From contig JAQTVQ010000002.1 in the NCBI GenBank assembly GCA_028706715.1, forward strand, positions 3,510-67,509: a stretch of DNA of 64,000 nt, given 5' to 3'. The notes below the pieces were generated by a model that saw nothing but the letters and a program-made list of their open reading frames with translations, was not told the DNA's origin and made no database searches. This document shows, piece by piece, positions 1-33,381 of the stretch (the stretch's first letter is position 1; each line of letters begins with the position of its first letter). A program made the translations under genes and the position numbers. The stretch comes from Minisyncoccota bacterium (GTDB lineage: Bacteria; Patescibacteriota; Minisyncoccia; Minisyncoccales; JAQTVQ01).

Positions 1-464
1 GCTGGAAAGAAATAGCAAAAAAGCTGGCCCCAAAAGAAGGAAAAACCGAAGACAAAGCTATCCAAAGACTGGAGATGCTTTTAAAGGAATGCTTTGGGTT
101 TAAGCTTTACGACGATGCCCGATTCGCTTTTGATCTTCCAATTCAAAAAGCAATTTTAACGGCTGGCAGCCGTTTTTTACTGGAGCCTTGCAATATTCCC
201 AAAAATATTGAAATCTTTACGCCTTTTGAAACAAGATTCCTTAAGCCTGATCCGAAAGCTTTTCTTTTTGTTCTTAAGCAATTAAAAATTTCGCCGAAAG
301 AAGCGGCAATGATAGGGGATGAAACAGAAAGAGATTTAATCCCGGCTTTAAATCTCGGGATGAGAGCCTTTTTGATTGAAAGAGAAGATAAAAACATCGG
401 TATTTTGCCCAACAAAATTATAAAACTAAGCTCTCTCAAAGAATTAGAAAATTACCTCCTTTGA
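1..464 (+). CDS. HAD-superfamily hydrolase, C-terminal part (5' end lies outside the window)
   Basis: The frame is open from the window edge. The translation (MIGDETERDLIPALNLGMRAFLIE...) looks like HAD-family phosphatase motifs III/IV. Confidence 0.55.
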   Translation, partial: WKEIAKKLAPKEGKTEDKAIQRLEMLLKECFGFKLYDDARFAFDLPIQKAILTAGSRFLLEPCNIPKNIEIFTPFETRFLKPDPKAFLFVLKQLKISPKEAAMIGDETERDLIPALNLGMRAFLIEREDKNIGILPNKIIKLSSLKELENYLL

Positions 465-890
465 AATATTCTTTAAAAGCTGATAACCTTTAATGATTGA
501 GGAGTTTTTGCTATGTGCGTTTATGGAGGTCCTGAAAACCGGCCCAAAGGCAAACATCTTTGCGCCAAAGGCAGGCAAAAAAGAGGATTGGCCTTAAGCG
601 ACGGCCCTGATGCCCTAAACGAAGGAGAGAGAAGAAAAAGAGAGGAAGAAGAATGAACAGCCGATCTTTTATAAACAAATACGCTCTTTGTAAGGCCGAA
701 CAGAGGCTTGCCGGCGCTGATTGCTTGCAGCCTCATTTTTTTGCTTAAACAATCTTAGCCCCTTTTTGAGTCAATGATTTTTTGATAAACTGAACCAATC
801 TTCCAATTTAACGGCGGAAAGAAACATCGGGGAAAGTATAAAATCACCGCGGAAATTTCTATATTCCGCCAACATAAAATTTTGCATGTT

Positions 891-962
891 AGGCCTGTAG
901 TCAAGCGGCAAGACGCCGCCCTCCTTCGTTAAAACTATGGCGGGCAAAGCATTCGCATTGCA
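891..962 (+). pseudogene. Partial, degenerate copy of the tRNA-Ala 5' half (acceptor/D-arm plus anticodon-stem sequence, with a ~31-nt insertion and no T-arm or 3' acceptor strand)
   Basis: AGGCCTGTAGTCAAGCGGCAAGACGCCGC ... CATTCGCATTGCA matches the first 29 nt (3 mismatches) and the anticodon stem/loop of the complete tRNA at 997..1067. No complementary 3' acceptor strand is present. Confidence 0.35.
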
Positions 963-996
963 CCCTTCCAAAACAAAATATTCAGCAGTCTTTCAT

Positions 997-1067
997 GGGC
1001 CTGTAGTCAAGTGGCACGACGCCGCATTCGCATTGCGGAAGCGCGAGTCCGATTCTCGCCAGGTCCA
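997..1067 (+). tRNA. tRNA-Ala (anticodon CGC)
   Basis: Hand-folded cloverleaf. Acceptor stem GGGCCTG/CAGGTCC carries the G3:U70 wobble that is the alanine identity element. Anticodon stem CCGCA/TGCGG with loop TTCGCAT gives anticodon CGC. T-stem GCGAG/CTCGC, discriminator A. No encoded CCA. Confidence 0.8.
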
Positions 1068-1076
1068 CAACAATAG

Positions 1077-1247
1077 AATTTTCGGGCACAAGCCCGATTT
1101 TTTGTCGTTGCCGCAATTTCTCGCAAATTAGGAGTTCGCCGAGCTTATATTGGCGGGGTTGAAAACGGAAAAAGAAACCCCACTCTTGCGACAATTCAGA
1201 AAGCAGCCAAAGCTCTTGGATTTTCGGCAGATAAATTGTTGAAATAA
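1077..1247 (+). pseudogene. 5'-truncated remnant of an XRE-family helix-turn-helix regulator gene
   Basis: The in-frame translation ...ISRKLGVRRAYIGGVENGKRNPTLATIQKAAKALGFSADKLLK* corresponds to helix 2-3 and the C-terminus of an HTH_XRE domain. There is no start codon and no N-terminal helix. The frame opens 9 nt after the tRNA. Confidence 0.5.
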
Positions 1248-1304
1248 TAATTATGCCAAAAAAGAGTTATTCAAAATTAGAAAAAGTTGATATAATAAAG
1301 CTAT

Positions 1305-2477
1305 ATGAGTAGGAGCCAAAAACATCTAAATCATATAGACGCCATTAACCTTGGATCTTATTATACTCCCGAGACTATTGTTGATTTGGCTTATTCTGTT
1401 TTGCAAAATAACATTAAAGATATTAAGGATTTTTCAATAATAGATTCTTCTTGTGGTTACGGTTCGTTTTTGACAAAAAACAACATTGCGAAAAGATTGA
1501 TTGGGGCCGATATTGATCAAAAAGCAATTTCTGAAGCAAAAAAAATAATTAGCAAAGTTGATTTTATCTGCCAAAATTCTCTTTTGAATGTTAATCGTCC
1601 AAGTTTAACGATTAAGAATGATGAAAAAATTATAACCATAGGAAACCCCCCATATAACGATACTACGTCTATAATTCGTAGTTCCATTAAAGATACTTCC
1701 ATCCAGGACAAAATTGATGTCGACATAAAAACCAGGGATTTGGGTATGTCATTTTTGTTGTCTTACGACAAACTTAAAGCGGATTATGTTTGCGTTTTGC
1801 ATCCTTTATCTTATTTAATCAAAAAAGCCAACTTTGCCCTGCTTTCAAAATTTGCTAAAAACTATAAATTAATTGACGGGATAATCATAAGTAGTCATGA
1901 ATTTTCTGATACTTCTCGCGGAATGGCCTTTCCGATTTTGATCGCCCTTTATAAAAGGGACGAAATAGGAATGAGTTATGGCTATATTCAAAATTATCAG
2001 TTTAAGGTAAAGGATGATGGCGTCTTTCGTTTAAAAGATTTTGATACGATAGTCAACTATGTTCAAAAGTATCCAAATAAAAAATTTTTAAATAAAAATG
2101 ACAAGCCGATAGCAAAGTTTTGGACACTAAGAGATATAAATGCTCTTAAACGAAACAGAACTTTTATTGATGAAGATACCTACAATACTGTTTATGTGTT
2201 GATGGAAAAACTGCCTTATTATTGCTACATTGATATTTTTAAACAATATACGGATAAGATGCCGTATTTCATTGGAAATTGTGATGTGATAATTGATAAT
2301 GAAAAATTCGGAAAAATAAAAGAATGTTTTATCGCCCAAAGTGTTCATACAAATCCGATATTAAAAAATAAATTTAAGTTTAGAGAAATTCCTGATGCCA
2401 AACTAAAAATAGATAACTATTTTAAAGAATTGCTTGGAAGTAAATTTGGGAAAAAATATGCCGCAAATTTTAATTAA
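1305..2477 (+). CDS. N6-adenine DNA methyltransferase, gamma-class (type II R-M modification subunit, M.TaqI-like architecture)
   Basis: Motif I-like DSSCGYGSFL lies upstream of motif IV IGNPPY (NPPY). This order is the gamma-class arrangement seen in M.TaqI-type enzymes. Length 390 aa. Confidence 0.75.
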   Translation: MSRSQKHLNHIDAINLGSYYTPETIVDLAYSVLQNNIKDIKDFSIIDSSCGYGSFLTKNNIAKRLIGADIDQKAISEAKKIISKVDFICQNSLLNVNRPSLTIKNDEKIITIGNPPYNDTTSIIRSSIKDTSIQDKIDVDIKTRDLGMSFLLSYDKLKADYVCVLHPLSYLIKKANFALLSKFAKNYKLIDGIIISSHEFSDTSRGMAFPILIALYKRDEIGMSYGYIQNYQFKVKDDGVFRLKDFDTIVNYVQKYPNKKFLNKNDKPIAKFWTLRDINALKRNRTFIDEDTYNTVYVLMEKLPYYCYIDIFKQYTDKMPYFIGNCDVIIDNEKFGKIKECFIAQSVHTNPILKNKFKFREIPDAKLKIDNYFKELLGSKFGKKYAANFN

Positions 2478-3219
2478 AAAAGACGAACATAAAATTGAAA
2501 TTCCAATTTTATTAACCGCTGTTAGCGGAAAGATTCGCATTAAAAACCGATCAATCGTAAATGAGTATGGGACGCCAGTTGCAACCAAAAGAGACGGTTT
2601 CTCATTAAGCAATTATGTTGAATGGCAAATTGGCTACGATGTGATTAAAAAGGAAACAGAAAAGCTCGCGGAATCATCGCTGCCTGAAACTGAATTTATT
2701 GGAGCAAACGGAAAAATCAAAGCACTTTACGAATTATCAGAATATATTTGGTATTTCTATAAATGGGATGTCATCTCCAAAGAAGAATTGGAAAATGTTA
2801 TTGCTTATCTTAATTCAATACAAGATCAAAATTTGATTGATAATAATTCTGAGTTGCAAATTGATCGTAGCCACCCAATTGAAAAAAACATAAACGGATT
2901 TGATTTTGAATATACTCAGGTTAAATATCCACTTTTGATTTACAAATTTAACGGATATGAAATAGTTACCGAAATAAAAATTACCGAAAAGCAGTATGCG
3001 GTTGGCACGCAACCAATGCTATATTTATGTTTTCCAATTACAGAATTAAAAGCAAAACATAATTTAATCGGACGATGTGCCGAAGTAAAAGAATTTACCT
3101 ATTTTGAAATTTCAAAGAGTAATATTAAAGTGTTTTTGGAGATGTTAAAAATGTTTGGTCTTCTGTCAAAAAACCATAAACACGATGTCCTACAGATTAT
3201 CAATACGATTATAAATTAG
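2434..3219 (+). CDS. Putative cognate type II restriction endonuclease (no recognisable motif; call rests on context)
   Basis: A 261-aa ORF overlaps the methyltransferase 3' end by 44 nt on the same strand. That is a classic M-then-R arrangement. I could not recognise a PD-(D/E)xK or other nuclease motif by eye. Confidence 0.35.
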   Translation: MEVNLGKNMPQILIKKDEHKIEIPILLTAVSGKIRIKNRSIVNEYGTPVATKRDGFSLSNYVEWQIGYDVIKKETEKLAESSLPETEFIGANGKIKALYELSEYIWYFYKWDVISKEELENVIAYLNSIQDQNLIDNNSELQIDRSHPIEKNINGFDFEYTQVKYPLLIYKFNGYEIVTEIKITEKQYAVGTQPMLYLCFPITELKAKHNLIGRCAEVKEFTYFEISKSNIKVFLEMLKMFGLLSKNHKHDVLQIINTIIN

Positions 3220-3500
3220 GCGGCGTGCCAGCCTTACTGGCACGAAAGATTGCGGTGGCGGAAAAAGAAAAAACGGAAAAGTTTTCTGTTTTGCCACGCG
3301 AAGCGCGGCAATCAGTCGGGGTTTTGTTCAAAATGATTTTTTTTCCAACAAACACCATCAATCGCAACTTTCGCCGTTTTGGAAAGGATCGCTTTGAGGC
3401 TTCGCCGCTCGGCAGAAAGCTTGGGAACGGCAAGAGATAAGCCGCCTTTGAGGCAAGCAAAAAGCGGGATTTTTTGCTGATTTTATGTTATAATATTAGT

Positions 3501-3773
3501 ATGATCCCAAAAGTTATTCGGCCTTTTTTGTGGTCAAACAATTTGGATGAAATGGATCTCCAAAGAGATAAAAGAAGAATAATCCTTAATATTTTGAATA
3601 TCGGCACAAAGCCCGCCACTGATTGGCTTTTTGATTTTTATCCAAGATCAGAAATCGTAAAAATAATTGTTGAGTATGGGGCAAAAGGGGAGTTAAGCGA
3701 AAAGTCTTTGAATTATTGGACATTGATGCTGGATATCCCTTTTAAAAAACTAACAAGCAAACGCTTATCTTAG
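3501..3773 (+). CDS. Small hypothetical protein, possibly the partner/antitoxin of the downstream AbiEii-like gene
   Basis: The ORF is 5 nt upstream of the nucleotidyltransferase gene on the same strand. A TATAAT hexamer lies at 3489..3494, 7 nt before the ATG, which suggests a leaderless transcript. The ORF track extends the frame to a TTG at 3474. Confidence 0.3.
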   Translation: MIPKVIRPFLWSNNLDEMDLQRDKRRIILNILNIGTKPATDWLFDFYPRSEIVKIIVEYGAKGELSEKSLNYWTLMLDIPFKKLTSKRLS

Positions 3774-3777
3774 CGAT

Positions 3778-4395
3778 ATGTTTTATAATATTTTGGATAA
3801 AAAAAGGCTGGAGACGCTGCCTTTGCTGAAAAATTTTAAAGATGGCTATTATTTAGCCGGCGAAACCGGACTGGCCTTGCAACTCGGCCGCCGCGACAGT
3901 ATTGATTTTGATTTTTTTTCGCAGAAAGAAATCAATACTGAAAAATTATTTTCTTTAATTAAAGAGGTTTTTAACGGTCGCAGAATAACTAAAGTCCAAG
4001 AAGAAAAAAATTCTCTTACGGTTTTTATTGACGAAAATATTAAATTAAGCTTTTTTTCATATAAATACAGGCTGATAGACGCTTTGGTTAAAGAAAAAGA
4101 TCTTAATATTGCTTCTGTTATGGATATCGCTTGCATGAAGCTGGCGGCAATTGTCAGCCGCGCGTCCAATAAAGACTATATTGATCTGTATTTTATTTTA
4201 AAACGCTTCTCCTTAAAAGAAATTTTGAATAAAATGAATGAAAAAATGCCTGACCTAGACGCCAATTTGGTTTTAAAAAGCCTAGTCTTCTTTAAAGACG
4301 TAGATCAAGAGCCTATAAAATTTCACAACAATAATGAGACAGATTTTGAAACAATTAAAAATTTTTTGATAAAAGAAGTTAGCAGTTTGACTTAA
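3778..4395 (+). CDS. AbiEii/AbiGii-like nucleotidyltransferase (type IV toxin-antitoxin toxin family)
   Basis: LAGETGLALQLGRRDSIDFDFF resembles the GGTAL...H/R..S.D.D motif, and KDYIDLYFIL resembles the C-terminal KDlyDl motif of the AbiEii family. Confidence 0.45.
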   Translation: MFYNILDKKRLETLPLLKNFKDGYYLAGETGLALQLGRRDSIDFDFFSQKEINTEKLFSLIKEVFNGRRITKVQEEKNSLTVFIDENIKLSFFSYKYRLIDALVKEKDLNIASVMDIACMKLAAIVSRASNKDYIDLYFILKRFSLKEILNKMNEKMPDLDANLVLKSLVFFKDVDQEPIKFHNNNETDFETIKNFLIKEVSSLT

Positions 4396-4682
4396 ACAAA
4401 AAAACTGCCGCAAACAAATCAATCCGCATCAAGAAACGATGCGAAAAAACGCTTCATAATCCGCGAATTCTTTCAAAAACCGGCAAAGCAGGCCTTTTGC
4501 CAAAAGAAAAATGGAAGAAAAACCGTCATTCAATGGAAAATAAGGCGTTCACTGAAAAATTTACGGTTCCTGCCTGCAAAACATCCATAAAATTTATTTT
4601 AAATATTTTTCCCTTAAACAATTTTGGGTTCGTTGTATAATTAAATTGCTTTTAATTAGAAAAATCCTTATTTCAAACAATT

Positions 4683-5075
4683 ATGGCGGCAAATCAAGAA
4701 ATCGGCCGGATAGGGGAAAATCTTGCCGCTCAATATTTAAAAGACAAAAAATACAAAATACTGGATCGTAATTATGTTTTCCGCCCGCTTCAAGGCCCGC
4801 CGCTCGGAGAAATAGACATTATCGCGAAAAAAGACGGAATAATCGTTTTTGTTGAAGTAAAAACATTAAGAATATCGGGAAAAGAACCTTTAATCCGGCC
4901 GGAAGAAAAGGCAAACTCAAAAAAGATGCGCAAAATAGCGATAGCGGCGGAAGGCTGGCTGGCGCGAAAAAAAATAAAGTTGGACGCGCCGTGGCAGATA
5001 GACATAATGGCCGTAAAAATTTTAAACGGCGAAAATAAAATAGTGCATTTTGAAAACGCGGTTTCCGGTTTTTGA
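4683..5075 (+). CDS. yraN: YraN/UPF0102 family endonuclease-like protein
   Basis: IGRIGENLAAQYLKDKKYKILDRNY...GEIDIIAKKDGIIVFVEVKT is the typical YraN signature. Confidence 0.8.
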   Translation: MAANQEIGRIGENLAAQYLKDKKYKILDRNYVFRPLQGPPLGEIDIIAKKDGIIVFVEVKTLRISGKEPLIRPEEKANSKKMRKIAIAAEGWLARKKIKLDAPWQIDIMAVKILNGENKIVHFENAVSGF

Positions 5076-5127
5076 TCCAATGTGGATAACCGTCATTGAC
5101 CGCCGCCTCAAATTAAATATAATTACG

Positions 5128-5153
5128 GTTGTCCGGACAATTATCCGGACAAC
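5128..5153. promoter_or_regulatory. Perfect 26-bp palindrome GTTGTCCGGACAATTATCCGGACAAC (candidate operator), 44 nt upstream of the membrane-protein gene at 5197
   Basis: 10-bp inverted arms around a 6-bp AT spacer. A perfect DnaA-box sequence (TGTGGATAA) lies 40 nt upstream at 5081..5089. Confidence 0.45.
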
Positions 5154-5196
5154 ATTTTTGCCAAACAGAATACAAGTTTGGCTTTCTAAATAAAAT

Positions 5197-5841
5197 ATGC
5201 AGATACAGCAATCTCTCTCGCAAATACAAATTATTTTAGACCAAAGGCTTTCTTTCAGAATCATTTTGGCTGTTTCGGTTTTTTTTCTCGGATGGGCGCT
5301 GTCCTGCTGGCTGGCAAAAAAGATATCCCGCATACTGGAAAAAACAAGCCTTGATAAAATCGCCAAAAGCATTCAATTGGACGGCATCCCCAGAGGAAGC
5401 CTTCACGGTTTTATCGGCGAGATATTAAAATATTCTTTTTTGCTTATAGCCTTAATGGTTGCAACGGACATCGCGGGACTGCAGCAGGTTAGCGGATTTC
5501 TTGTTTCCATTATTAAATTCCTGCCTAATATTTATATCTCTCTCGCCATTCTCTTTATCGCGCTTTTTGCCGAAAGCTTCTGCAGAAAAATCATTGTTGG
5601 AAGCGTTGAGGGAGAAAAATTCGTTTATTCCAAAATATTGGGAGAAACGGCTAGAATCTCCATCAGGATTTTGGCTATTTTAGCCGTTTTATACCAATTA
5701 AAAATAGCTCAAGCGCTGGCATTAAGCGTTTTCATCGCTTTATTGGCCACTTTGGCTTTGGCCGTCGGCATTTCTTTCGGAATGGGAGGCAAAGACATAG
5801 CAAAAAAGTTTTTGGACGAAGTCAAAAAAAAGATTTCTTGA
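5197..5841 (+). CDS. Polytopic membrane protein of unknown function
   Basis: Several hydrophobic segments. No recognisable catalytic motif. Confidence 0.35.
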   Translation: MQIQQSLSQIQIILDQRLSFRIILAVSVFFLGWALSCWLAKKISRILEKTSLDKIAKSIQLDGIPRGSLHGFIGEILKYSFLLIALMVATDIAGLQQVSGFLVSIIKFLPNIYISLAILFIALFAESFCRKIIVGSVEGEKFVYSKILGETARISIRILAILAVLYQLKIAQALALSVFIALLATLALAVGISFGMGGKDIAKKFLDEVKKKIS

Positions 5842-5894
5842 GCCTTTTAAACGGAAAAATCCGAAAGAAAGACACTCTCATTTTTTCTTAAATT

Positions 5895-7688
5895 ATGAAA
5901 AACATTACCCCAAAAGATCTTAAAAAAATGGTTCTCTATTCCTGCGAGAGGATAGAAAAAGAGAAAGAGAACATAAACAAAATTAATGTTTTTCCTATAC
6001 CGGACCAAGACACGGGGAATAATCTTGCCAAGACTCTTGCAGGAATAAAAGAAGCGATTGAAAACAAAAACTATAATTCGGCCGAAGATTTGGCCAATGA
6101 TATTTTGGAGGCATCTCTCTCCAGCGCCCAAGGAAACGCAGGAGTGATTTACACCGGTTTTTTAGCCGGTTTTTTATCGCAAATCGGCCGAAAAGATATT
6201 GACGCCAAAACTTTGGGAGAAGCCTTTCGCAAAGGAGCTGAAAGGGCGAAGCAATCAATCCAAAACCCAAAAGAAGGCACTATTCTCAATGTAATAACCG
6301 CTGCCGCTGAAAGCCTTGAAAAAGAAGCTAAAAAGCAAAAAAATATTCCCTCTGCTTTGAAAGAAGCTTCCAAGGCGGCCGGAGAGGCTCTTTTAAAAAC
6401 TCGGGAGCAAATGCCTGTTTTTAAAAAAGCCAATGTTGTTGATGCGGGAGGGCTTGGGTTTGTGATGATTTTGGAAAGCTATCTTGACGCATTAAAAGAC
6501 AAAAAAACAGCTTCTTTCTCCAAGATCAAGCCGTTGGAAAAAGCCAAGAATATCGTCCAGATAATATCCGCTCGCTTTGAAGTGGTGGCTCTCATTGAAG
6601 ATCCTAGAGCCAGCGACATTGAAATGCGCAGATTTTTATCCCGTTTTGGCAATTCTTTGGATATTGTTCAAATAAAAAACAAAATGAAAATCCACATCCA
6701 TACCGATCTTCCGGATGATGTCGTCTCCGCCATAAGGCAAAAAGGACGGATTGTTTCTTTAAGGACCGAAGATATGGCAAAAGAGATAGTGGGAGAGCCT
6801 TCAATCAAAAAAACAACAATCGGATTGGTCACCGATCCTCTTGCCAATCTGACCGATAAGATTATCAGCCGTTACGACATAGAAATAGTTAAGTATGTTT
6901 ATAGCTGGCCGGAAGAGAATATGCTAAGAGGGGAAAATATCTACCAAAAAATGAAAGACGCCGCTTCCAAGGGGATAGCCAACCTGCCCAAAACGTCCCA
7001 GCCGAGCCCGAAAGACTTCCTTGAAGCGTTTAAAAAGAAGCTGGAGCAGGGGTATAAAGACGTTCTTTGCATCAATTTCTCTTCCAAACTTTCAGGAGGA
7101 TACAATTCCGCCTGCCAAGCTAAAAACCTGTTGCCTGAAAACCAAAAGCAAAAAATCCACATTTTTGATTCTATGAACGCCAGCGCCGGACAAGCCTTAA
7201 TCGTTTTAAGGGCCATTGAGCTTATACAAACGAGAAGAAATATCAAAGAAGCGCTGTCCAGCCTCAAAAAAGAAGCGGACAAGGTAAAGATGTACGGGAT
7301 GCCTCAAGATCCCAAATGGCTGGAATGGGGCGGCCGCATCAGCAAGAGCCAAGCCCAATGGTTAAAAAGACTTCAAAAAATAAGAATCAATCCTTTGCTT
7401 GGGATCAAAAAAGGAAAGATAGAAAAAATAGGATTCAGCGCAGGGGCAAAAGAAATGTCCGAGGCTCTTTTTAAAAAAATAATGTCTGACACAAAAATTT
7501 TGAGAAAAGAAAATAAGAACATCCGCATCGTCATAACGCATTGCGACAATCTCCAAGGAGCCAAAAAGCTTAAAGAAATGCTAAGACAAGAAAATTTTGA
7601 AGTTTCTTTTGTCAATTTGACCGATTCAGTCATCGGCGTCCATACGGGACCGGGGACGCTGCTTGCCGCATGGACCGAAATAGATTAA
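5895..7688 (+). CDS. fakA: Fatty acid kinase FakA-like (DAK2 domain fused to a DegV-like domain)
   Basis: The N-terminal half is Dak2-like (DQDTGNNLAKTL...AQGNAGVIYTGF). The C-terminal half is DegV-like (SQPSPKDFLEAFKKKLEQGY...INFSSKLSGGYNSA...IFDSMNASAGQALIVL). At 597 aa, the size matches YloV/FakA. Confidence 0.65.
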   Translation: MKNITPKDLKKMVLYSCERIEKEKENINKINVFPIPDQDTGNNLAKTLAGIKEAIENKNYNSAEDLANDILEASLSSAQGNAGVIYTGFLAGFLSQIGRKDIDAKTLGEAFRKGAERAKQSIQNPKEGTILNVITAAAESLEKEAKKQKNIPSALKEASKAAGEALLKTREQMPVFKKANVVDAGGLGFVMILESYLDALKDKKTASFSKIKPLEKAKNIVQIISARFEVVALIEDPRASDIEMRRFLSRFGNSLDIVQIKNKMKIHIHTDLPDDVVSAIRQKGRIVSLRTEDMAKEIVGEPSIKKTTIGLVTDPLANLTDKIISRYDIEIVKYVYSWPEENMLRGENIYQKMKDAASKGIANLPKTSQPSPKDFLEAFKKKLEQGYKDVLCINFSSKLSGGYNSACQAKNLLPENQKQKIHIFDSMNASAGQALIVLRAIELIQTRRNIKEALSSLKKEADKVKMYGMPQDPKWLEWGGRISKSQAQWLKRLQKIRINPLLGIKKGKIEKIGFSAGAKEMSEALFKKIMSDTKILRKENKNIRIVITHCDNLQGAKKLKEMLRQENFEVSFVNLTDSVIGVHTGPGTLLAAWTEID

Positions 7689-7730
7689 CAAATAAATCAA
7701 AGTTGGAAAATCAAAATACAAGCGGGAGAA

Positions 7731-7790
7731 TATATCATCGCAAAGCGATACAATAATTTTACATTTTGATACTTGCATTTAAATTAAAGC
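7731..7790. repeat. ~60-nt intergenic repeat element, copy A
   Basis: TATATCATCGCAAAGCGATACAATAATTTTACATTTTGATACTTGCATTTAAATT matches the reverse complement of 22330..22392 nearly base for base. Confidence 0.6.
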
Positions 7791-22329: not shown

Positions 22330-22392
22330 AGAATGGAAATTTAAAATGTAAAAATCAAAATGTAAAATTATTGTATCGCTTCGCGACAATAT
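22330..22392. repeat. ~60-nt intergenic repeat element, copy B (inverted orientation), directly downstream of tRNA-Lys
   Basis: AATGGAAATTTAAAATGTAAAAATCAAAATGTAAAATTATTGTATCGCTTCGCGACAATATAT. Its reverse complement aligns with 7731..7790 and includes a conserved small hairpin (TCGC-GAA-GCGA versus ATCGC-AAA-GCGAT). Confidence 0.6.
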
Positions 22393-22520
22393 ATTACCCC
22401 GCGGAAGGGGATACCATAATTTTGCATTTTGATGTTTGAATTTTGCATTTTCGCGTCGAAATTTCCTCATGTTTATAACAGATTTAATAAATTCAGATTA
22501 CTAAATAATACAAAAACGAT

Positions 22521-31211: not shown

Positions 31212-33381
31212 AAAAACGGACAAGATTCTCTTTTTCTCTGCCGTTGTTTTTATCTCTTTGTTTTTTTCCGCTTCTTTTTGCTCGGCGGCTTTTGATTTGG
31301 CCACTCCCATAATTATCGGTTTTTTGCAAATTGCCTGCCAAATTGTCCTTTTTTTGACTTCAGGGATTTTAGGCCTGGCTGGAGGCTTTTTAGAAATAAT
31401 GGCCAGCCCGCAGTTTATCGCCGCCAAATTCACCAGCAACGAATTTGTGGCGCTGGGAACGAATATCACGCTAGGGTTTGCCAATATCGTCATCCTTTTG
31501 TCTCTTTTGGCCATAGGAATCGGCACGGCTTTAAGGCTGGACAAGTTTGACGCCAGGAAAAATTTTTCCAGTTTATTGATCGTTATTTTCTTGATTAATT
31601 TTTTTGCTCCTCTTTTTTGCGGATTGATTATAGACGCTTCCAATATTGTAATGAATTTTTTTATCGGTAGCGGATTTTCAGCTTCCAAGGTTCTTTCAAA
31701 CGCCTTGGCCGCCCAAGGAAATAATCTAGCATCTCACGCCAACGGACTTGCCACGATAGTTGAGCTTTTGAATCTAAAATTTCTGATGCAGACTGTCATT
31801 ATGATTGTTTTTAACCTCTCTTTAGCTATTGTCCTCTTTCTTTTCGGCCTTCTTTTCGTTATGAGATACGCCGCGCTTTGGACACTGGTCATCCTTTCTC
31901 CTTTGGCTTTTTCTTGTTATATCCTCCCTTCCACTAGAAAGATATTCAACACTTGGATGAATCAATTCGTCAACTGGTGTTTTGTGGGAGCTATTGCTTC
32001 TTTCTTTCTTTATTTGGGCCAGCAATTAATAGGCCTTATCTCTCAAGGAAACTTGGTGCTGGTTCCTCCCGGCCAAAGCTCAAACTGGTATGGGATGGAG
32101 AGCGTAATGCCATACATAGTGGCAATTATCTTCTTATTCATAGGCTTCTTCTTCTCTCTAAGCTCAAGCGCCATGGGCTCGGGAGCCGTAATCGGATACG
32201 CGCAGGGACAAACTAAAAAACTCGGTAATTGGGGCGCGAGAAGATTTATCAAAGCTCCCGCTAAAGAAGGAGGAAAGGATGCGGTAAGATCAAGGGCGAC
32301 AGAAAAAGTCGCGAAAGGAATTTCCTCTCTCGGCTCAAGCCTTTCTCCTTCTTGGGGAGAAGGAGAAAAAGGAGTCAGCGGCTGGGCGAAAAGACAAGCC
32401 GCAAAAGGCTTGGGCGTTCCGGGAAGAGCTCTCGGAGGAGCGGGAGCGGCCTTGTCTATGGAAAGAGACAAGCAGATAGGAGAGATAACCAAAAAAGCCG
32501 AAGAGATGAAAACCAAAGAGCTGAAAGGAGCTTTAAAGGGAGGCTCTCTCGGAGAAAAAGGATCTTTAAAAAACGGCTTGATCGTGGCGTCTTTCCTTAC
32601 GGATAAAGACGAAGGAAAGAACAAAGAAGCAAGAGAGAAAATAAAAGTTATGAACAAGGGAGAGATTGAAGCTATGGTTAGGGCTCTTTTGAAAGAAGGA
32701 AAGAACAAAGAGGCTGACGCAATGGGAAGAATATCTCTTCTTATGAAAAAGACTAAAGATTTAAAAGAAATAGGATTTAAGGAATTAAGCCCCGAAGAAA
32801 GAGAAAAAAACAAAGAATGGAAAAATAAATGGAGCGGCCATGCCGACAGACTGATAGACACCGCCGACATTGATACTATTAAAAAATACGGCGGAGACAT
32901 TTCAGAGTCCGAAGAGATGATGGCCTCCGCCGCCAGGCTCTGGGGACAGGGGAAAGTTAAGGCTGCAGCGGAACAATTTGAAGACAAATTTATTAAAAAA
33001 TACTGCGAAGCGGCAGACAACATAGGCTTTAAAGAAATGCTGAAAGAAAATCCCGGAGCCGTAATGTTCAGGATAAGCAGCGCCGCGCAGGATGCCGGAT
33101 TTACCCCTCCTGTCAACAATGAAGGAAAATTGATTATGAAAAAAGAAGAAGTGCAAGCGATAAGAAGAGAGATCAAAACTCAAACAGGCTCTTTTGGATT
33201 GGCCGGACCGCACGGCGAGCCGATCAGCCAATTTAAAAAATTTCAAAGCTCGTTAAAAGACGCACAGAGAGACTTGGAAAAAGAAGTAAAAAAAACGGAA
33301 GAAAAAAAAGAAAGACGGAATCCTCCAAGAGGGACGGAAACCGGACCGAAAAGAAGCGACAAGCGGCCTCCGGGGACATAA
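31204..33381 (+). CDS. Large polytopic membrane protein with a ~400-aa charged/Gly-rich C-terminal tail; possibly VirB6/TrbL-like
   Basis: Signal peptide plus at least 6 TM helices in the first ~330 aa, then a hydrophilic K/E/G-rich tail. It sits in the T4SS-like cluster. Confidence 0.35.
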   Translation: MIKKTDKILFFSAVVFISLFFSASFCSAAFDLATPIIIGFLQIACQIVLFLTSGILGLAGGFLEIMASPQFIAAKFTSNEFVALGTNITLGFANIVILLSLLAIGIGTALRLDKFDARKNFSSLLIVIFLINFFAPLFCGLIIDASNIVMNFFIGSGFSASKVLSNALAAQGNNLASHANGLATIVELLNLKFLMQTVIMIVFNLSLAIVLFLFGLLFVMRYAALWTLVILSPLAFSCYILPSTRKIFNTWMNQFVNWCFVGAIASFFLYLGQQLIGLISQGNLVLVPPGQSSNWYGMESVMPYIVAIIFLFIGFFFSLSSSAMGSGAVIGYAQGQTKKLGNWGARRFIKAPAKEGGKDAVRSRATEKVAKGISSLGSSLSPSWGEGEKGVSGWAKRQAAKGLGVPGRALGGAGAALSMERDKQIGEITKKAEEMKTKELKGALKGGSLGEKGSLKNGLIVASFLTDKDEGKNKEAREKIKVMNKGEIEAMVRALLKEGKNKEADAMGRISLLMKKTKDLKEIGFKELSPEEREKNKEWKNKWSGHADRLIDTADIDTIKKYGGDISESEEMMASAARLWGQGKVKAAAEQFEDKFIKKYCEAADNIGFKEMLKENPGAVMFRISSAAQDAGFTPPVNNEGKLIMKKEEVQAIRREIKTQTGSFGLAGPHGEPISQFKKFQSSLKDAQRDLEKEVKKTEEKKERRNPPRGTETGPKRSDKRPPGT

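Follow-up and report, generated by a model that had tools for sequence, protein, structure and literature searches.

What kind of defence system lies between the tRNA-Ala(CGC) gene and yraN in a 64,000 nucleotide (nt) stretch of contig JAQTVQ010000002.1 (hereafter the window; 40% GC), and did its genes arrive there together? An earlier note, made from the sequence alone, had described this interval as a small island integrated at the tRNA gene, with a broken helix-turn-helix (HTH) regulator gene, an adenine methyltransferase gene overlapping an endonuclease gene, a GC-rich non-coding patch and an AbiEii-like module. We located all of these features in the sequence, each on the forward strand. 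We consider it likely that the interval is a defence islet of two layers, in which a cassette of ~2.3 kb (~1069-3356) carrying a restriction-modification (R-M) system of the PabI lineage has been added to an older DUF6922-AbiEii gene pair. The methyltransferase (M) and the overlapping gene (R) almost certainly form a PabI-family R-M system.

PabI-family restriction glycosylases are unusual, in that a base is excised and the phosphodiester backbone is not cut. The locus and its more than 1,300 close homologues indicate that one PabI subclade is common and recently mobile among bacteria of the Candidate Phyla Radiation (CPR), hosts whose genomes are tiny and contain few other defences. The locus also illustrates cleanly how a defence islet can grow in layers beside a tRNA gene, and how a controller gene can be lost while the R-M pair is kept.

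The M and R genes

The R open reading frame (ORF) can be read from a TTG at 2434, giving 261 residues and the 44-nt overlap with M that had been described in the earlier note. However, more than 100 R homologues are 253 residues long and gene callers start R at the ATG at 2458. The ORF therefore stands, but R is more likely the 253-residue protein encoded at 2458-3219, with a 20-nt overlap. R matched the Pfam family PF09522 (RE_R_Pab1) with an expectation value (E) of 8.2e-45 and 152 bits (cut-off 25). A phmmer search of PDB chains aligned it full length with R.CcoLI (7cfa; E 2.7e-58; residues 19-261 of the 261-residue ORF), and also matched it to R.PabI (2dvy; E 9.5e-14). We modelled R with AlphaFold2 (predicted local distance difference test, pLDDT, 68.7; predicted template modelling score, pTM, 0.74) and compared the model with PDB structures using Foldseek. 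All 13 matches at E<=1e-3 were R.CcoLI or R.PabI, with template modelling (TM) scores of 0.53-0.69, and the next match had an E of 0.14. The catalytic residues reported for these enzymes are Tyr68, His211 and Asp214 in R.PabI and Asp53, Asn67, Lys71 (the apurinic/apyrimidinic (AP) lyase residue) and Asp225 in R.CcoLI (PMC7806768). Alignment identified Y60, H240, D243, D61, N84 and K88 (253-residue numbering) as the equivalents in R, and these were invariant in 20 homologues. The Pfam match, the full-length matches to sequences of known structure, the catalytic residues and the model together indicate a HALFPIPE glycosylase and not a PD-(D/E)xK nuclease. We therefore assign R to the HALFPIPE restriction DNA glycosylases; it is probably bifunctional, with AP lyase activity. 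The endonuclease proposed in the earlier note gives way to this assignment, as the fold comparison recovered no classical nuclease fold.

M (1305-2477) encodes 390 residues. Motif I (DSSCGYGSF, residues 47-55) precedes the NPPY motif (114-117), which is the gamma-class order, and ~270 residues follow to the C-terminus. The protein matched Pfam N6_Mtase and the PADLOC model MTase_II (1.9e-83), and was 49% identical (E 7e-104) to the methyltransferase encoded directly upstream of R.Pab1, on the same strand, on a Campylobacter coli plasmid. We predict from these similarities that M is the cognate gamma-class N6-adenine partner of R and methylates the A of GTAC. This supports the earlier reading of a gamma-class NPPY adenine methyltransferase in a type II-like pair with M preceding R. 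The further description of M as M.TaqI-like is appropriate at the level of class; beyond that, a phmmer search of M against all PDB chains (E<=1) returned no DNA methyltransferase chain, M.TaqI or other, M.TaqI structures presumably being among the chains searched, and the depletion of TCGA described below is not tied to the cassette.

A conserved promoter region (1262-1304) precedes M, with TTCAAA at 1270-1275 and an extended -10 element (TGATATAAT, 1288-1296) that ends 8 nt before the M start. This block is identical in unrelated loci, and in most of 80 metagenome loci with M that we compared with the window, homology begins at 1242-1317. The M mRNA is probably leaderless. By comparison with characterised homologues, M would methylate the GTAC adenine on host DNA, while an R homodimer would flip out and excise the unmethylated adenine of GTAC on incoming DNA, using the equivalents of R.PabI Tyr68, His211 and Asp214. 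The lysine equivalent to R.CcoLI Lys71 would then nick the abasic site by beta-elimination, leaving ends that may be hard to re-ligate. Both genes would be transcribed from the cassette's own extended -10 promoter, and the 20-nt overlap of M and R suggests translational coupling.

All characterised members of the family, PabI, HpyAXII and CcoLI, act on GTAC (PMC10273834, PMC7806768). In the window, GTAC occurred 12 times against 39.4 expected under a maximal-order Markov model, a ratio of 0.30. This made it the second most depleted 4-bp palindrome, and put the window in the lowest tenth of 68 related Paceibacteria loci, whose median was 0.68. There was no GTAC within the cassette itself. The ratios were 0.9-1.7 in loci L014, L016, L017, L018 and L175, which are cassette-free at the matching locus. 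The depletion lends indirect support to a GTAC target and to long-term activity, and judged by homology and motif counts the R-M pair probably does recognise GTAC and is probably active. TCGA was much more strongly depleted in the window (4 observed, 115 expected), and to an equal degree in L013 (0 against 15.5), L016 (2 against 30) and L175 (1 against 17), with normal counts in L014, L015, L017 and L018. L013, L016 and L175 do not have the cassette at this locus, so the depletion of TCGA is not due to it, and points to strong lineage-specific pressure from a TCGA-specific (TaqI-type) system outside the window. We considered whether a second methyltransferase gene could account for TCGA, but the sole other ORF with an xPPY motif (32043-33176, reverse strand) is overlapped by a 725-residue ORF on the other strand and is unlikely to be a gene.

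The pair closely resembles the lineage of CcoLI (C. coli) and HpyAXII (Helicobacter pylori). R shares 43-50% full-length identity with R.CcoLI and plasmid R.Pab1 (43% for the R.Pab1 annotated on Campylobacter conjugative plasmids), with the same catalytic Tyr, His and Asp and the same AP-lyase Lys, and M, itself 49% identical to its Campylobacter counterpart, lies upstream of R on the same strand. As in that lineage, the genes form a small mobile unit of two or three genes that lands in intergenic DNA near toxin-antitoxin genes (PMC4615327). In contrast, the host here is a CPR bacterium (Paceibacteria), the subclade of the window is very widespread, and some copies have a controller-type HTH gene and GC-rich inverted end modules. 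Kojima and Kobayashi reported that M lies upstream of R in the bacterial PabI lineage and that its methyltransferases are of gamma type with a C-terminal recognition domain; they also described an insertion carrying 'part of a penicillinase repressor' with R and M, and linkage to toxin-antitoxin genes (PMC4615327). These last two cases are close parallels to the window locus. The R-M pair agrees with the bacterial PabI lineage in every respect that could be tested, and is in this sense a known kind of system. R.PabI of Pyrococcus abyssi (archaeal lineage; PDB 2DVY, 3WAZ) shares the HALFPIPE fold and the Tyr68, His211 and Asp214 equivalents, but is only ~23% identical. Archaeal systems have M and R tail to tail, and the window R has an insertion typical of the bifunctional (AP-lyase) bacterial enzymes.

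The probable insertion beside tRNA-Ala

We compared the window with related loci. The top matches of its FakA-DegV fusion protein (5895-7688) were in metagenome-assembled genomes (MAGs) named 'Candidatus Paceibacterota', and no species representative exceeded 82% amino-acid identity. The interval is bounded on the left by the intact tRNA-Ala(CGC) gene (997-1068; ARAGORN; Rfam 59.5 bits), and on the right synteny with all relatives resumes at the YraN/UPF0102 gene (4683-5075; Pfam). Four more distant relatives (L014, L015, L016 and L175) have neither M-R nor the AbiEii pair between these genes. They carry instead ~6 kb of other genes, encoding membrane proteins and a Clp-like ATPase, none of which are in the window, and synteny with L015 and L016 stops ~13 nt past tRNA-Ala. 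This confirmed the variability of the interval that the earlier note had implied.

The two layers were separated by comparison with L013, the nearest relative that was informative (82% FakA-DegV identity). The L013 contig opens with 28 of 28 nt of the tRNA-Ala 3' end (window 1041-1068), which is joined after 9-27 nt to the region upstream of DUF6922, and continues through DUF6922, AbiEii, yraN and beyond at 76-88% DNA identity. L013 has the AbiEii pair, and does not have the HTH remnant, M, R or the first 137 nt of the GC-rich patch. The presence of the AbiEii pair without M-R shows two layers of different age, which require at least two steps. Since only ~1069-3356 is absent from L013, the single integrated island of the earlier note has to be divided, and we are confident that ~1069-3356 was inserted later than the AbiEii pair and separately from it. 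At the right edge, the terminal module of the cassette, hereafter the right arm, ends in TCCAACAAACACC (3344-3356), and the next bases, ATCAATCGC, resume similarity to L013 (ATCAATTGCC), so that this edge of the insertion coincides with the outer module end. On the left, the edge falls within 1069-1112.

The GC content was 31% in M-R against 40% for the window, and 45-47% in the non-coding stretch at 3220-3500. The GC-rich patch that had been described 3' of R is therefore real, but only 3220-3356, the decayed right end of the cassette, is part of the insertion; the remainder (3357-3500) is homologous to L013, and is native intergenic DNA carrying the DUF6922-AbiEii operon promoter (TTGCTG, a 17-nt spacer and TATAAT). 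Copies of the cassette in unrelated contexts share 89-94% DNA identity with it. This identity, the low GC content and the boundary at the module end speak for M-R having been gained in the lineage of the window and not lost in L013. Contigs of the same population, at 99.4-100% DNA identity, came from seven samples. Among the matches listed (of 20 read; seven samples), all eight contigs with an exact AbiEii sequence had R or an R fragment in the same place. Six of the eight had a complete M, and complete M and R genes were called in six, the other two contigs ending inside the cassette.

R homologues numbered 1,388 at E<=1e-5. The best 120 of the 1,388 had 80-92% amino-acid identity, and source names among the homologues included Moranbacteria, Buchananbacteria, Falkowbacteria, Yanofskybacteria and Paceibacterota. 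Orthologues of the housekeeping protein FakA-DegV, by comparison, share only 43-58% identity within Paceibacteria, and so the R-M pair has spread horizontally in recent time. One R homologue was labelled 'Pacearchaeota'; MAGs so labelled also carry a Paceibacteria-like FakA-DegV, and the label is probably a binning or labelling issue. In most of the 80 M loci, similarity to the window spanned 1242-1317 to 3209-3265, that is, M and R with the ~45-nt promoter block and at most 45 nt downstream. This unit was present at 78-94% nucleotide identity in at least 36 distinct upstream contexts. No relatives of M were detected in IMG/VR viral contigs, nor any relatives of R in INPHARED phages, and the 22-mer at the core of the arms was also absent from IMG/VR viral contigs; there is thus no evidence in these sets for a phage vector. 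Bacterial PabI members have been reported almost exclusively from Campylobacter and Helicobacter (PMC4615327, PMC10273834). In the literature searched we found no paper linking PabI with CPR bacteria and none describing the recent spread of the cassette among them or its hairpin-rich ends, although public databases already apply the label 'R.Pab1 family' and both NCBI and Pfam annotate genes of this kind. In one M-R subclade (~80% identical; L008-L012, L145, L147 and L148), a DDE_Tnp_4/DDE_Tnp_1 transposase gene lies directly upstream of M, and there are no GC-rich arms.

An HTH remnant lies between tRNA-Ala and M (1077-1247). Its frame, 1077-1241, encodes NFRAQARFFVVAAISRKLGVRRAYIGGVENGKRNPTLATIQKAAKALGFSADKLLK, followed by tandem stop codons at 1242-1247, and contains no ATG, GTG or TTG start. 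Of the 55 positions in the Pfam HTH_3 profile, the frame covers only 14-55 (E 3e-11), which indicates that the first helix is missing, in agreement with the earlier description of a truncated gene. An intact gene of 68 codons (MAEISTKLGKNLKRIRTAKKLSQGAISRKLEVHRAYISGIENGKRNPTLATIQKLAEALGVSADELLK) precedes M by 61 nt in L096 and L097, the only two of the 80 M loci in which similarity extends left to 1112-1113. Homology of the remnant to this gene begins at 1113, at codon ~24, so that the start codon and the first ~23 codons are absent, and the two end at the same position. The top PADLOC match of the intact protein was 'Control_protein' (E 1.4e-17), and the remnant matched the same model (E 8.6e-9). 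Very probably, then, the remnant is what is left of a controller (C) gene belonging to the cassette. At the DNA level it shares 91% identity with L096, against 93% for M; this similar divergence suggests that the remnant and M were probably acquired together. The 12 nucleotide differences in the remnant cause 9 changes in 45 residues, and the number of amino-acid changes per nucleotide change is much lower in M, a pattern that fits relaxed selection on a dead gene.

No HTH gene was present upstream of M in 54 of 63 family loci, which indicates that C is a dispensable accessory, often lost. The HTH gene upstream of M in L150 has an in-frame stop. The ~68-residue XRE-type HTH proteins encoded directly upstream of the R-M genes in L096 and L097 resemble the controllers of systems of the C.PvuII, C.AhdI and C.Esp1396I type. 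They differ from these in their C-M-R order and in the separate conserved promoter before M, and in the window C is 5'-truncated, with no normal start for translation. The same genes in the same place with an intact HTH gene, which the earlier note had named as evidence against its island, were not found among the relatives; versions with an intact HTH gene occurred only in unrelated contexts (L096, L097). A terminator-like hairpin (1082-1103; TCGGGC-ACAA-GCCCGA, then a T run) lies within 1069-1112, 44 nt without a match in either L013 or the intact C gene, and may be native or imported. A 9-mer shared by the left junction of the window and the inner left region of L097 (CACAACAAT) was attributed to chance, with ~0.15 expected and no further similarity around it. 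Short palindromes were noticed 5' of C in L097, by visual inspection only.

A degenerate copy of the tRNA 5' half precedes the intact gene, as had been described. Positions 891-920 match tRNA positions 1-30 at 26 of 30 nt, which is beyond chance. A 29-nt unrelated insert follows, and 950-962 match the anticodon stem-loop at 13 of 13 nt (read from the sequence). This pseudo-tRNA (891-962) lacks both the T arm and the 3' acceptor strand, stops 34 nt short of the intact tRNA, was not called by ARAGORN or Rfam, and is absent 5' of tRNA-Ala in L015 and L016. As the fragment lies upstream of the tRNA and the insertion downstream, it is not an attachment (att) scar of the R-M insertion, and the earlier suggestion to that effect falls away. 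The most plausible reading is that an older duplication or recombination at tRNA-Ala left it behind, outside the R-M insertion. At the corresponding position, the tRNA-Ala leaders of L015 (1560-1682) and L016 (2700-2782) carry direct copies of a ~38-nt GC-rich unit (GCTTTGCCTCGCCGTAGCTCT[A/C]GCAAGAGCGAAGGAGG), as two full tandem copies in L015 and as one full copy after a diverged partial copy in L016. L016 also has an 18-nt fragment (TGCGGAAGCGCGAGTCCG, ~2873-2890), identical to the 3' half of the window-type tRNA-Ala, ~20 nt past its own, differently sequenced tRNA-Ala(CGC). This fragment is a trace of past recombination at tRNA-Ala, and the locus has a history of such events.

Integration through the tRNA was examined at this locus and across the family. 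No integrase or recombinase gene was present in 1-5200, where all ORFs belonged to other families or were unsupported. Direct repeats of the tRNA-Ala 3' end (12-30 nt, mismatches allowed) were not found within 8 kb, including downstream of R and of AbiEii, and no tRNA 3'-end repeats flanked the cassette in the window or in eight tRNA-adjacent loci. Among 58 family loci with enough upstream sequence, nine had a co-oriented tRNA ending 110-420 nt before M and none had a tRNA on the opposite strand. These tRNAs were Pro, Glu, Asp and three different Ser, and in several tRNA-adjacent loci the M-R leader abuts the tRNA CCA end or a tRNA 3'-end fragment. Contexts next to a tRNA were more frequent than at random genomic positions (8 of 37 against 3.8%, p = 6e-5), but the enrichment was not significant if insertions were confined to non-coding DNA. 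We therefore rejected tRNA targeting by the cassette, and read the enrichment as a hot-spot effect. Insertion would most likely have occurred by illegitimate or flank-homology recombination into a recombination-prone intergenic spot near the tRNA, without a tRNA-targeting integrase encoded at the locus. In L124 (87-102, 295-310) and L131 (~925-950), segments of 190-250 nt between the tRNA and M-R are bracketed by direct repeats of the tRNA 3' end. In L124 the repeat is exact over 16 nt; in L131 it is a diverged T-arm/acceptor copy that ends in CCGCCA. These segments look like remnants of small integrated elements.

Three other explanations were weighed against a two-layer islet. If the whole of 1069-4395 were one island, integrated at tRNA-Ala by a tyrosine integrase that left the upstream tRNA fragment as its scar, the differences from L014, L015, L016 and L175 would be explained, and the tRNA fragments in the window and L016, the tRNA 3'-end repeats near M-R in L124 and L131, and the frequent position of the family just 3' of a co-oriented tRNA (9 of 58 loci, and the window) would all fit. 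However, the DUF6922-AbiEii pair without M-R in L013 largely refutes a single island, the fragment is on the wrong side of the tRNA and separated from it by 34 nt, neither an integrase nor a downstream repeat of at least 12 nt was found, and the tRNA enrichment vanishes for non-coding-only insertion. We regard this explanation as highly improbable. It is only slightly less improbable that M-R was ancestral at the site and deleted in L013, with no recent insertion in the lineage of the window. This would suit an empty site seen in one contig that starts inside the tRNA, and the 9 nt after the L013 tRNA (CCAAAGTTA) bear a loose resemblance to the beginning of the M-R leader found beside other tRNAs. 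A deletion accords poorly with a cassette that is 89-94% identical to copies in unrelated contexts when the host flanks are 76-88% identical to L013, with its GC content of 31% against 40%, with homology that resumes at the sharp outer end of the arm, and with the more distant relatives, which are also without the cassette. The remaining explanation is that the cassette is a decaying relic, in which R is unexpressed or inactive and only M, or nothing, works. The truncated C gene and a right arm without its central hairpin are in keeping with decay, and PabI-family R genes are often disrupted in Helicobacter (PMC4615327). However, M and R are full length (390 and 253 residues) with intact catalytic residues, both are complete in six of the eight listed population contigs, the promoter between C and M is conserved, C is not required in the 54 of 63 family loci that have no upstream HTH gene, and GTAC is depleted in the window. 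We consider a relic unlikely.

Several observations also weigh against a two-layer islet with an active, GTAC-specific cassette. The empty site rests on the single contig of L013, which begins inside the tRNA, and the left junction can be placed no more finely than 1069-1112, as alignment scores are flat over several boundaries. The predicted GTAC specificity rests on 43-50% identity to characterised enzymes together with motif depletion, and L015, which is cassette-free at the matching locus, is also GTAC-depleted (5 observed, 14.4 expected). The confidence of the AlphaFold2 model of R is only moderate (pLDDT 68.7). The AbiEii scores are modest (E 1e-7), and the toxin and antitoxin roles in that layer are putative.

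Inverted modules at the cassette ends

The GC-rich sequence at the right end of the cassette has more complete counterparts in other genomes. In L096 and L097, inverted repeats of at least 98-114 nt with 100% complementarity enclose the C-M-R unit of 2,354 nt, and one arm in each locus reaches the contig end. The module extends ~185 nt from the R stop codon and folds as DNA into three hairpins (-45 kcal/mol, z = -3.65). The outer end is conserved (...GTTCGAACTTCGTCCAAAAAACACCGC / ...TCCAAAAAACACCGC), and beyond it the flanks are unrelated in L097, L107, L109 and L119. Outside their left arms, L096 and L119 have similar flanks, and the left boundary is less certain there. Hairpin 1 is ATTTTGC-AAA-GCAAAAT in left modules and GCCAAC-TTC-GTTGGC in right modules, and the alignments show paired changes within the right modules (A-T to G-C, and C-G to T-A in L095 and L165).

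The window arm (3220-3356), identified by alignments and nhmmer, has kept hairpin 1 (GTGCCAGC-CTTA-CTGGCAC, 3227-3245) and hairpin 3, and the long middle hairpin is mostly deleted. An nhmmer profile of the arm gave a sole hit in the 64-kb window, at 3280-3356 (E 3e-6), and no hit in 80 Paceibacteria loci totalling 1.27 Mb. Rfam searches of window 1-6000, L096 and L119 found no family for the GC-rich patch, the arms or the pseudo-tRNA. The ancestral cassette probably consisted of the C gene and the R-M pair bracketed by inverted ~185-nt GC-rich three-hairpin modules, in which case the window copy would have lost the left module and the first third of C, with decay of the right module.

The same inverted modules surround different cargoes. 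They bracket C-M-R or variants of it in L096, L097, L095 and L101, with an HTH gene, a 262-residue gene, M and R in L095 and four small ORFs, M and R in L101. In L119, 4.6 kb between modules (256-4873) encodes a C-like HTH protein, an MvaI/BcnI-family nuclease, a fusion of LexA(S24) to an N6/N4 methyltransferase, a GIY-YIG protein, an 8xMP-like membrane protein and ThsB-TIR. Each left module for which adjacent DNA was available is followed by an inward-reading HTH gene, except in L101. Metagenome contigs tend to break inside the modules. The only candidate for a target-site duplication was at most a 2-nt TG in L119, and no transposase was present inside the cassettes examined.

It is possible, but for now doubtful, that the modules are the functional ends of an undescribed family of non-autonomous mobile cassettes carrying defence genes between CPR genomes. 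The sharp outer end that coincides with the empty-site junction, the difference between left and right hairpin 1 with its compensatory changes, the absence of the modules from 1.3 Mb of related sequence outside defence cassettes, and the breaking of metagenome contigs inside them all speak for this. The window copy would in that case be a truncated, immobilised member, and the modules would provide a handle on the movement of defence genes in bacteria whose mobile elements are almost entirely uncharacterised. Equally, the modules could be terminator or insulator units that serve as substrates for homologous recombination. The inverted hairpin module around different defence cargoes is possibly new, and both its structure and the sharpness of its boundaries are shown here.

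Non-autonomous repeat-bounded cassettes include cargo units flanked by miniature inverted-repeat transposable elements, cis-mobilizable elements, and the Neisseria 'minimal mobile elements' with Correia repeats. The cassettes described here are similar, by comparison with general knowledge, in having defence cargo without its own recombinase, structured inverted repeats of ~185 nt with a sharp outer end, and the same repeats around different cargo. Unlike those elements, they have no identified target-site duplication, transposase or att site, and hairpin 1 differs between left and right. We rejected a reading of the arms as integron attC sites, as the arms are inverted and not direct and the R'/R'' core motifs are absent. 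The arm outer end (GTTCGAAC...GTCCA) was also considered as a tRNA T-loop/acceptor end, but the stems do not pair. An apparent third arm in L119 (7968-8106) lies inside an 865-residue ORF and aligned poorly, and was not counted. A second GC-rich repeat is located just outside the left arm in L096 (14-147 and 1631-1764) and L119 (92-255). It is 134 nt long, with copies 93% complementary in L096, and has an open frame of 66-71 codons that is similar in both loci and without a Pfam match.

The DUF6922-AbiEii pair and neighbouring features

The older layer consists of genes for DUF6922 (3501-3773; 90 residues; Pfam PF21956) and an AbiEii nucleotidyltransferase (3778-4395; 205 residues), separated by 4 nt. 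AbiEii matched PF08843 (E 1.4e-7; 32.1 bits, cut-off 22.5) and PADLOC AbiEii (2e-6), and has the nucleotidyltransferase motif GETGLALQLGRRDSIDFDF in its N-terminal region. Pfam and PADLOC thus uphold an AbiEii-type module with a small upstream partner, as first described, followed by yraN at 4683. DUF6922 itself had no PADLOC or NCBIfam match, and its name was found in no paper of the literature searched. Its homologues are 89-91 residues long, and those with 55-75% identity are followed by AbiEii in three further contexts, in addition to L013. The neighbours of these other pairs include GmrSD, SocA/Panacea and diversity-generating retroelement genes. We presume from this arrangement that DUF6922 is the antitoxin or partner of AbiEii, and that the two most likely form a toxin-antitoxin or abortive-infection module. 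The pair resembles the AbiE (AbiEi/AbiEii) type IV system in having an AbiEii nucleotidyltransferase with its motif and a small gene 4 nt upstream, and in being conserved as a pair in defence-rich neighbourhoods. It differs in that the partner is DUF6922 and not the AbiEi (COG5340) winged-helix antitoxin, and in that the nucleotidyltransferase is short.

In L183 and L184, from a co-occurring Paceibacteria species, DUF6922-AbiEii (partner 75% identical) is upstream of genes for 125-residue and 842-residue Clp-like proteins, the same genes that fill the interval between tRNA-Ala and yraN in L015 and L016. In L183 and L184 the Clp-like genes are beside SocA/Panacea, DUF3850 and GmrSD genes. The AbiEii pair may thus have been part of the variable region before the lineage of the window lost the Clp-like block.

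Two minor features of the surrounding sequence were also recorded. A 47-residue ORF (513-656, forward strand; MCVYGGPENRPKGKHLCAKGRQKRGL...) lies between an HAD gene and tRNA-Ala; it has a homologue at the matching position in L016 and is called as a gene in several population contigs, without a Pfam or NCBIfam match. A 65-nt sequence 3' of FakA-DegV (~7712-7775) has an inverted copy at 22338-22402, with 86% identity, just after tRNA-Lys(CTT), and is possibly a shared terminator or a small repeat.

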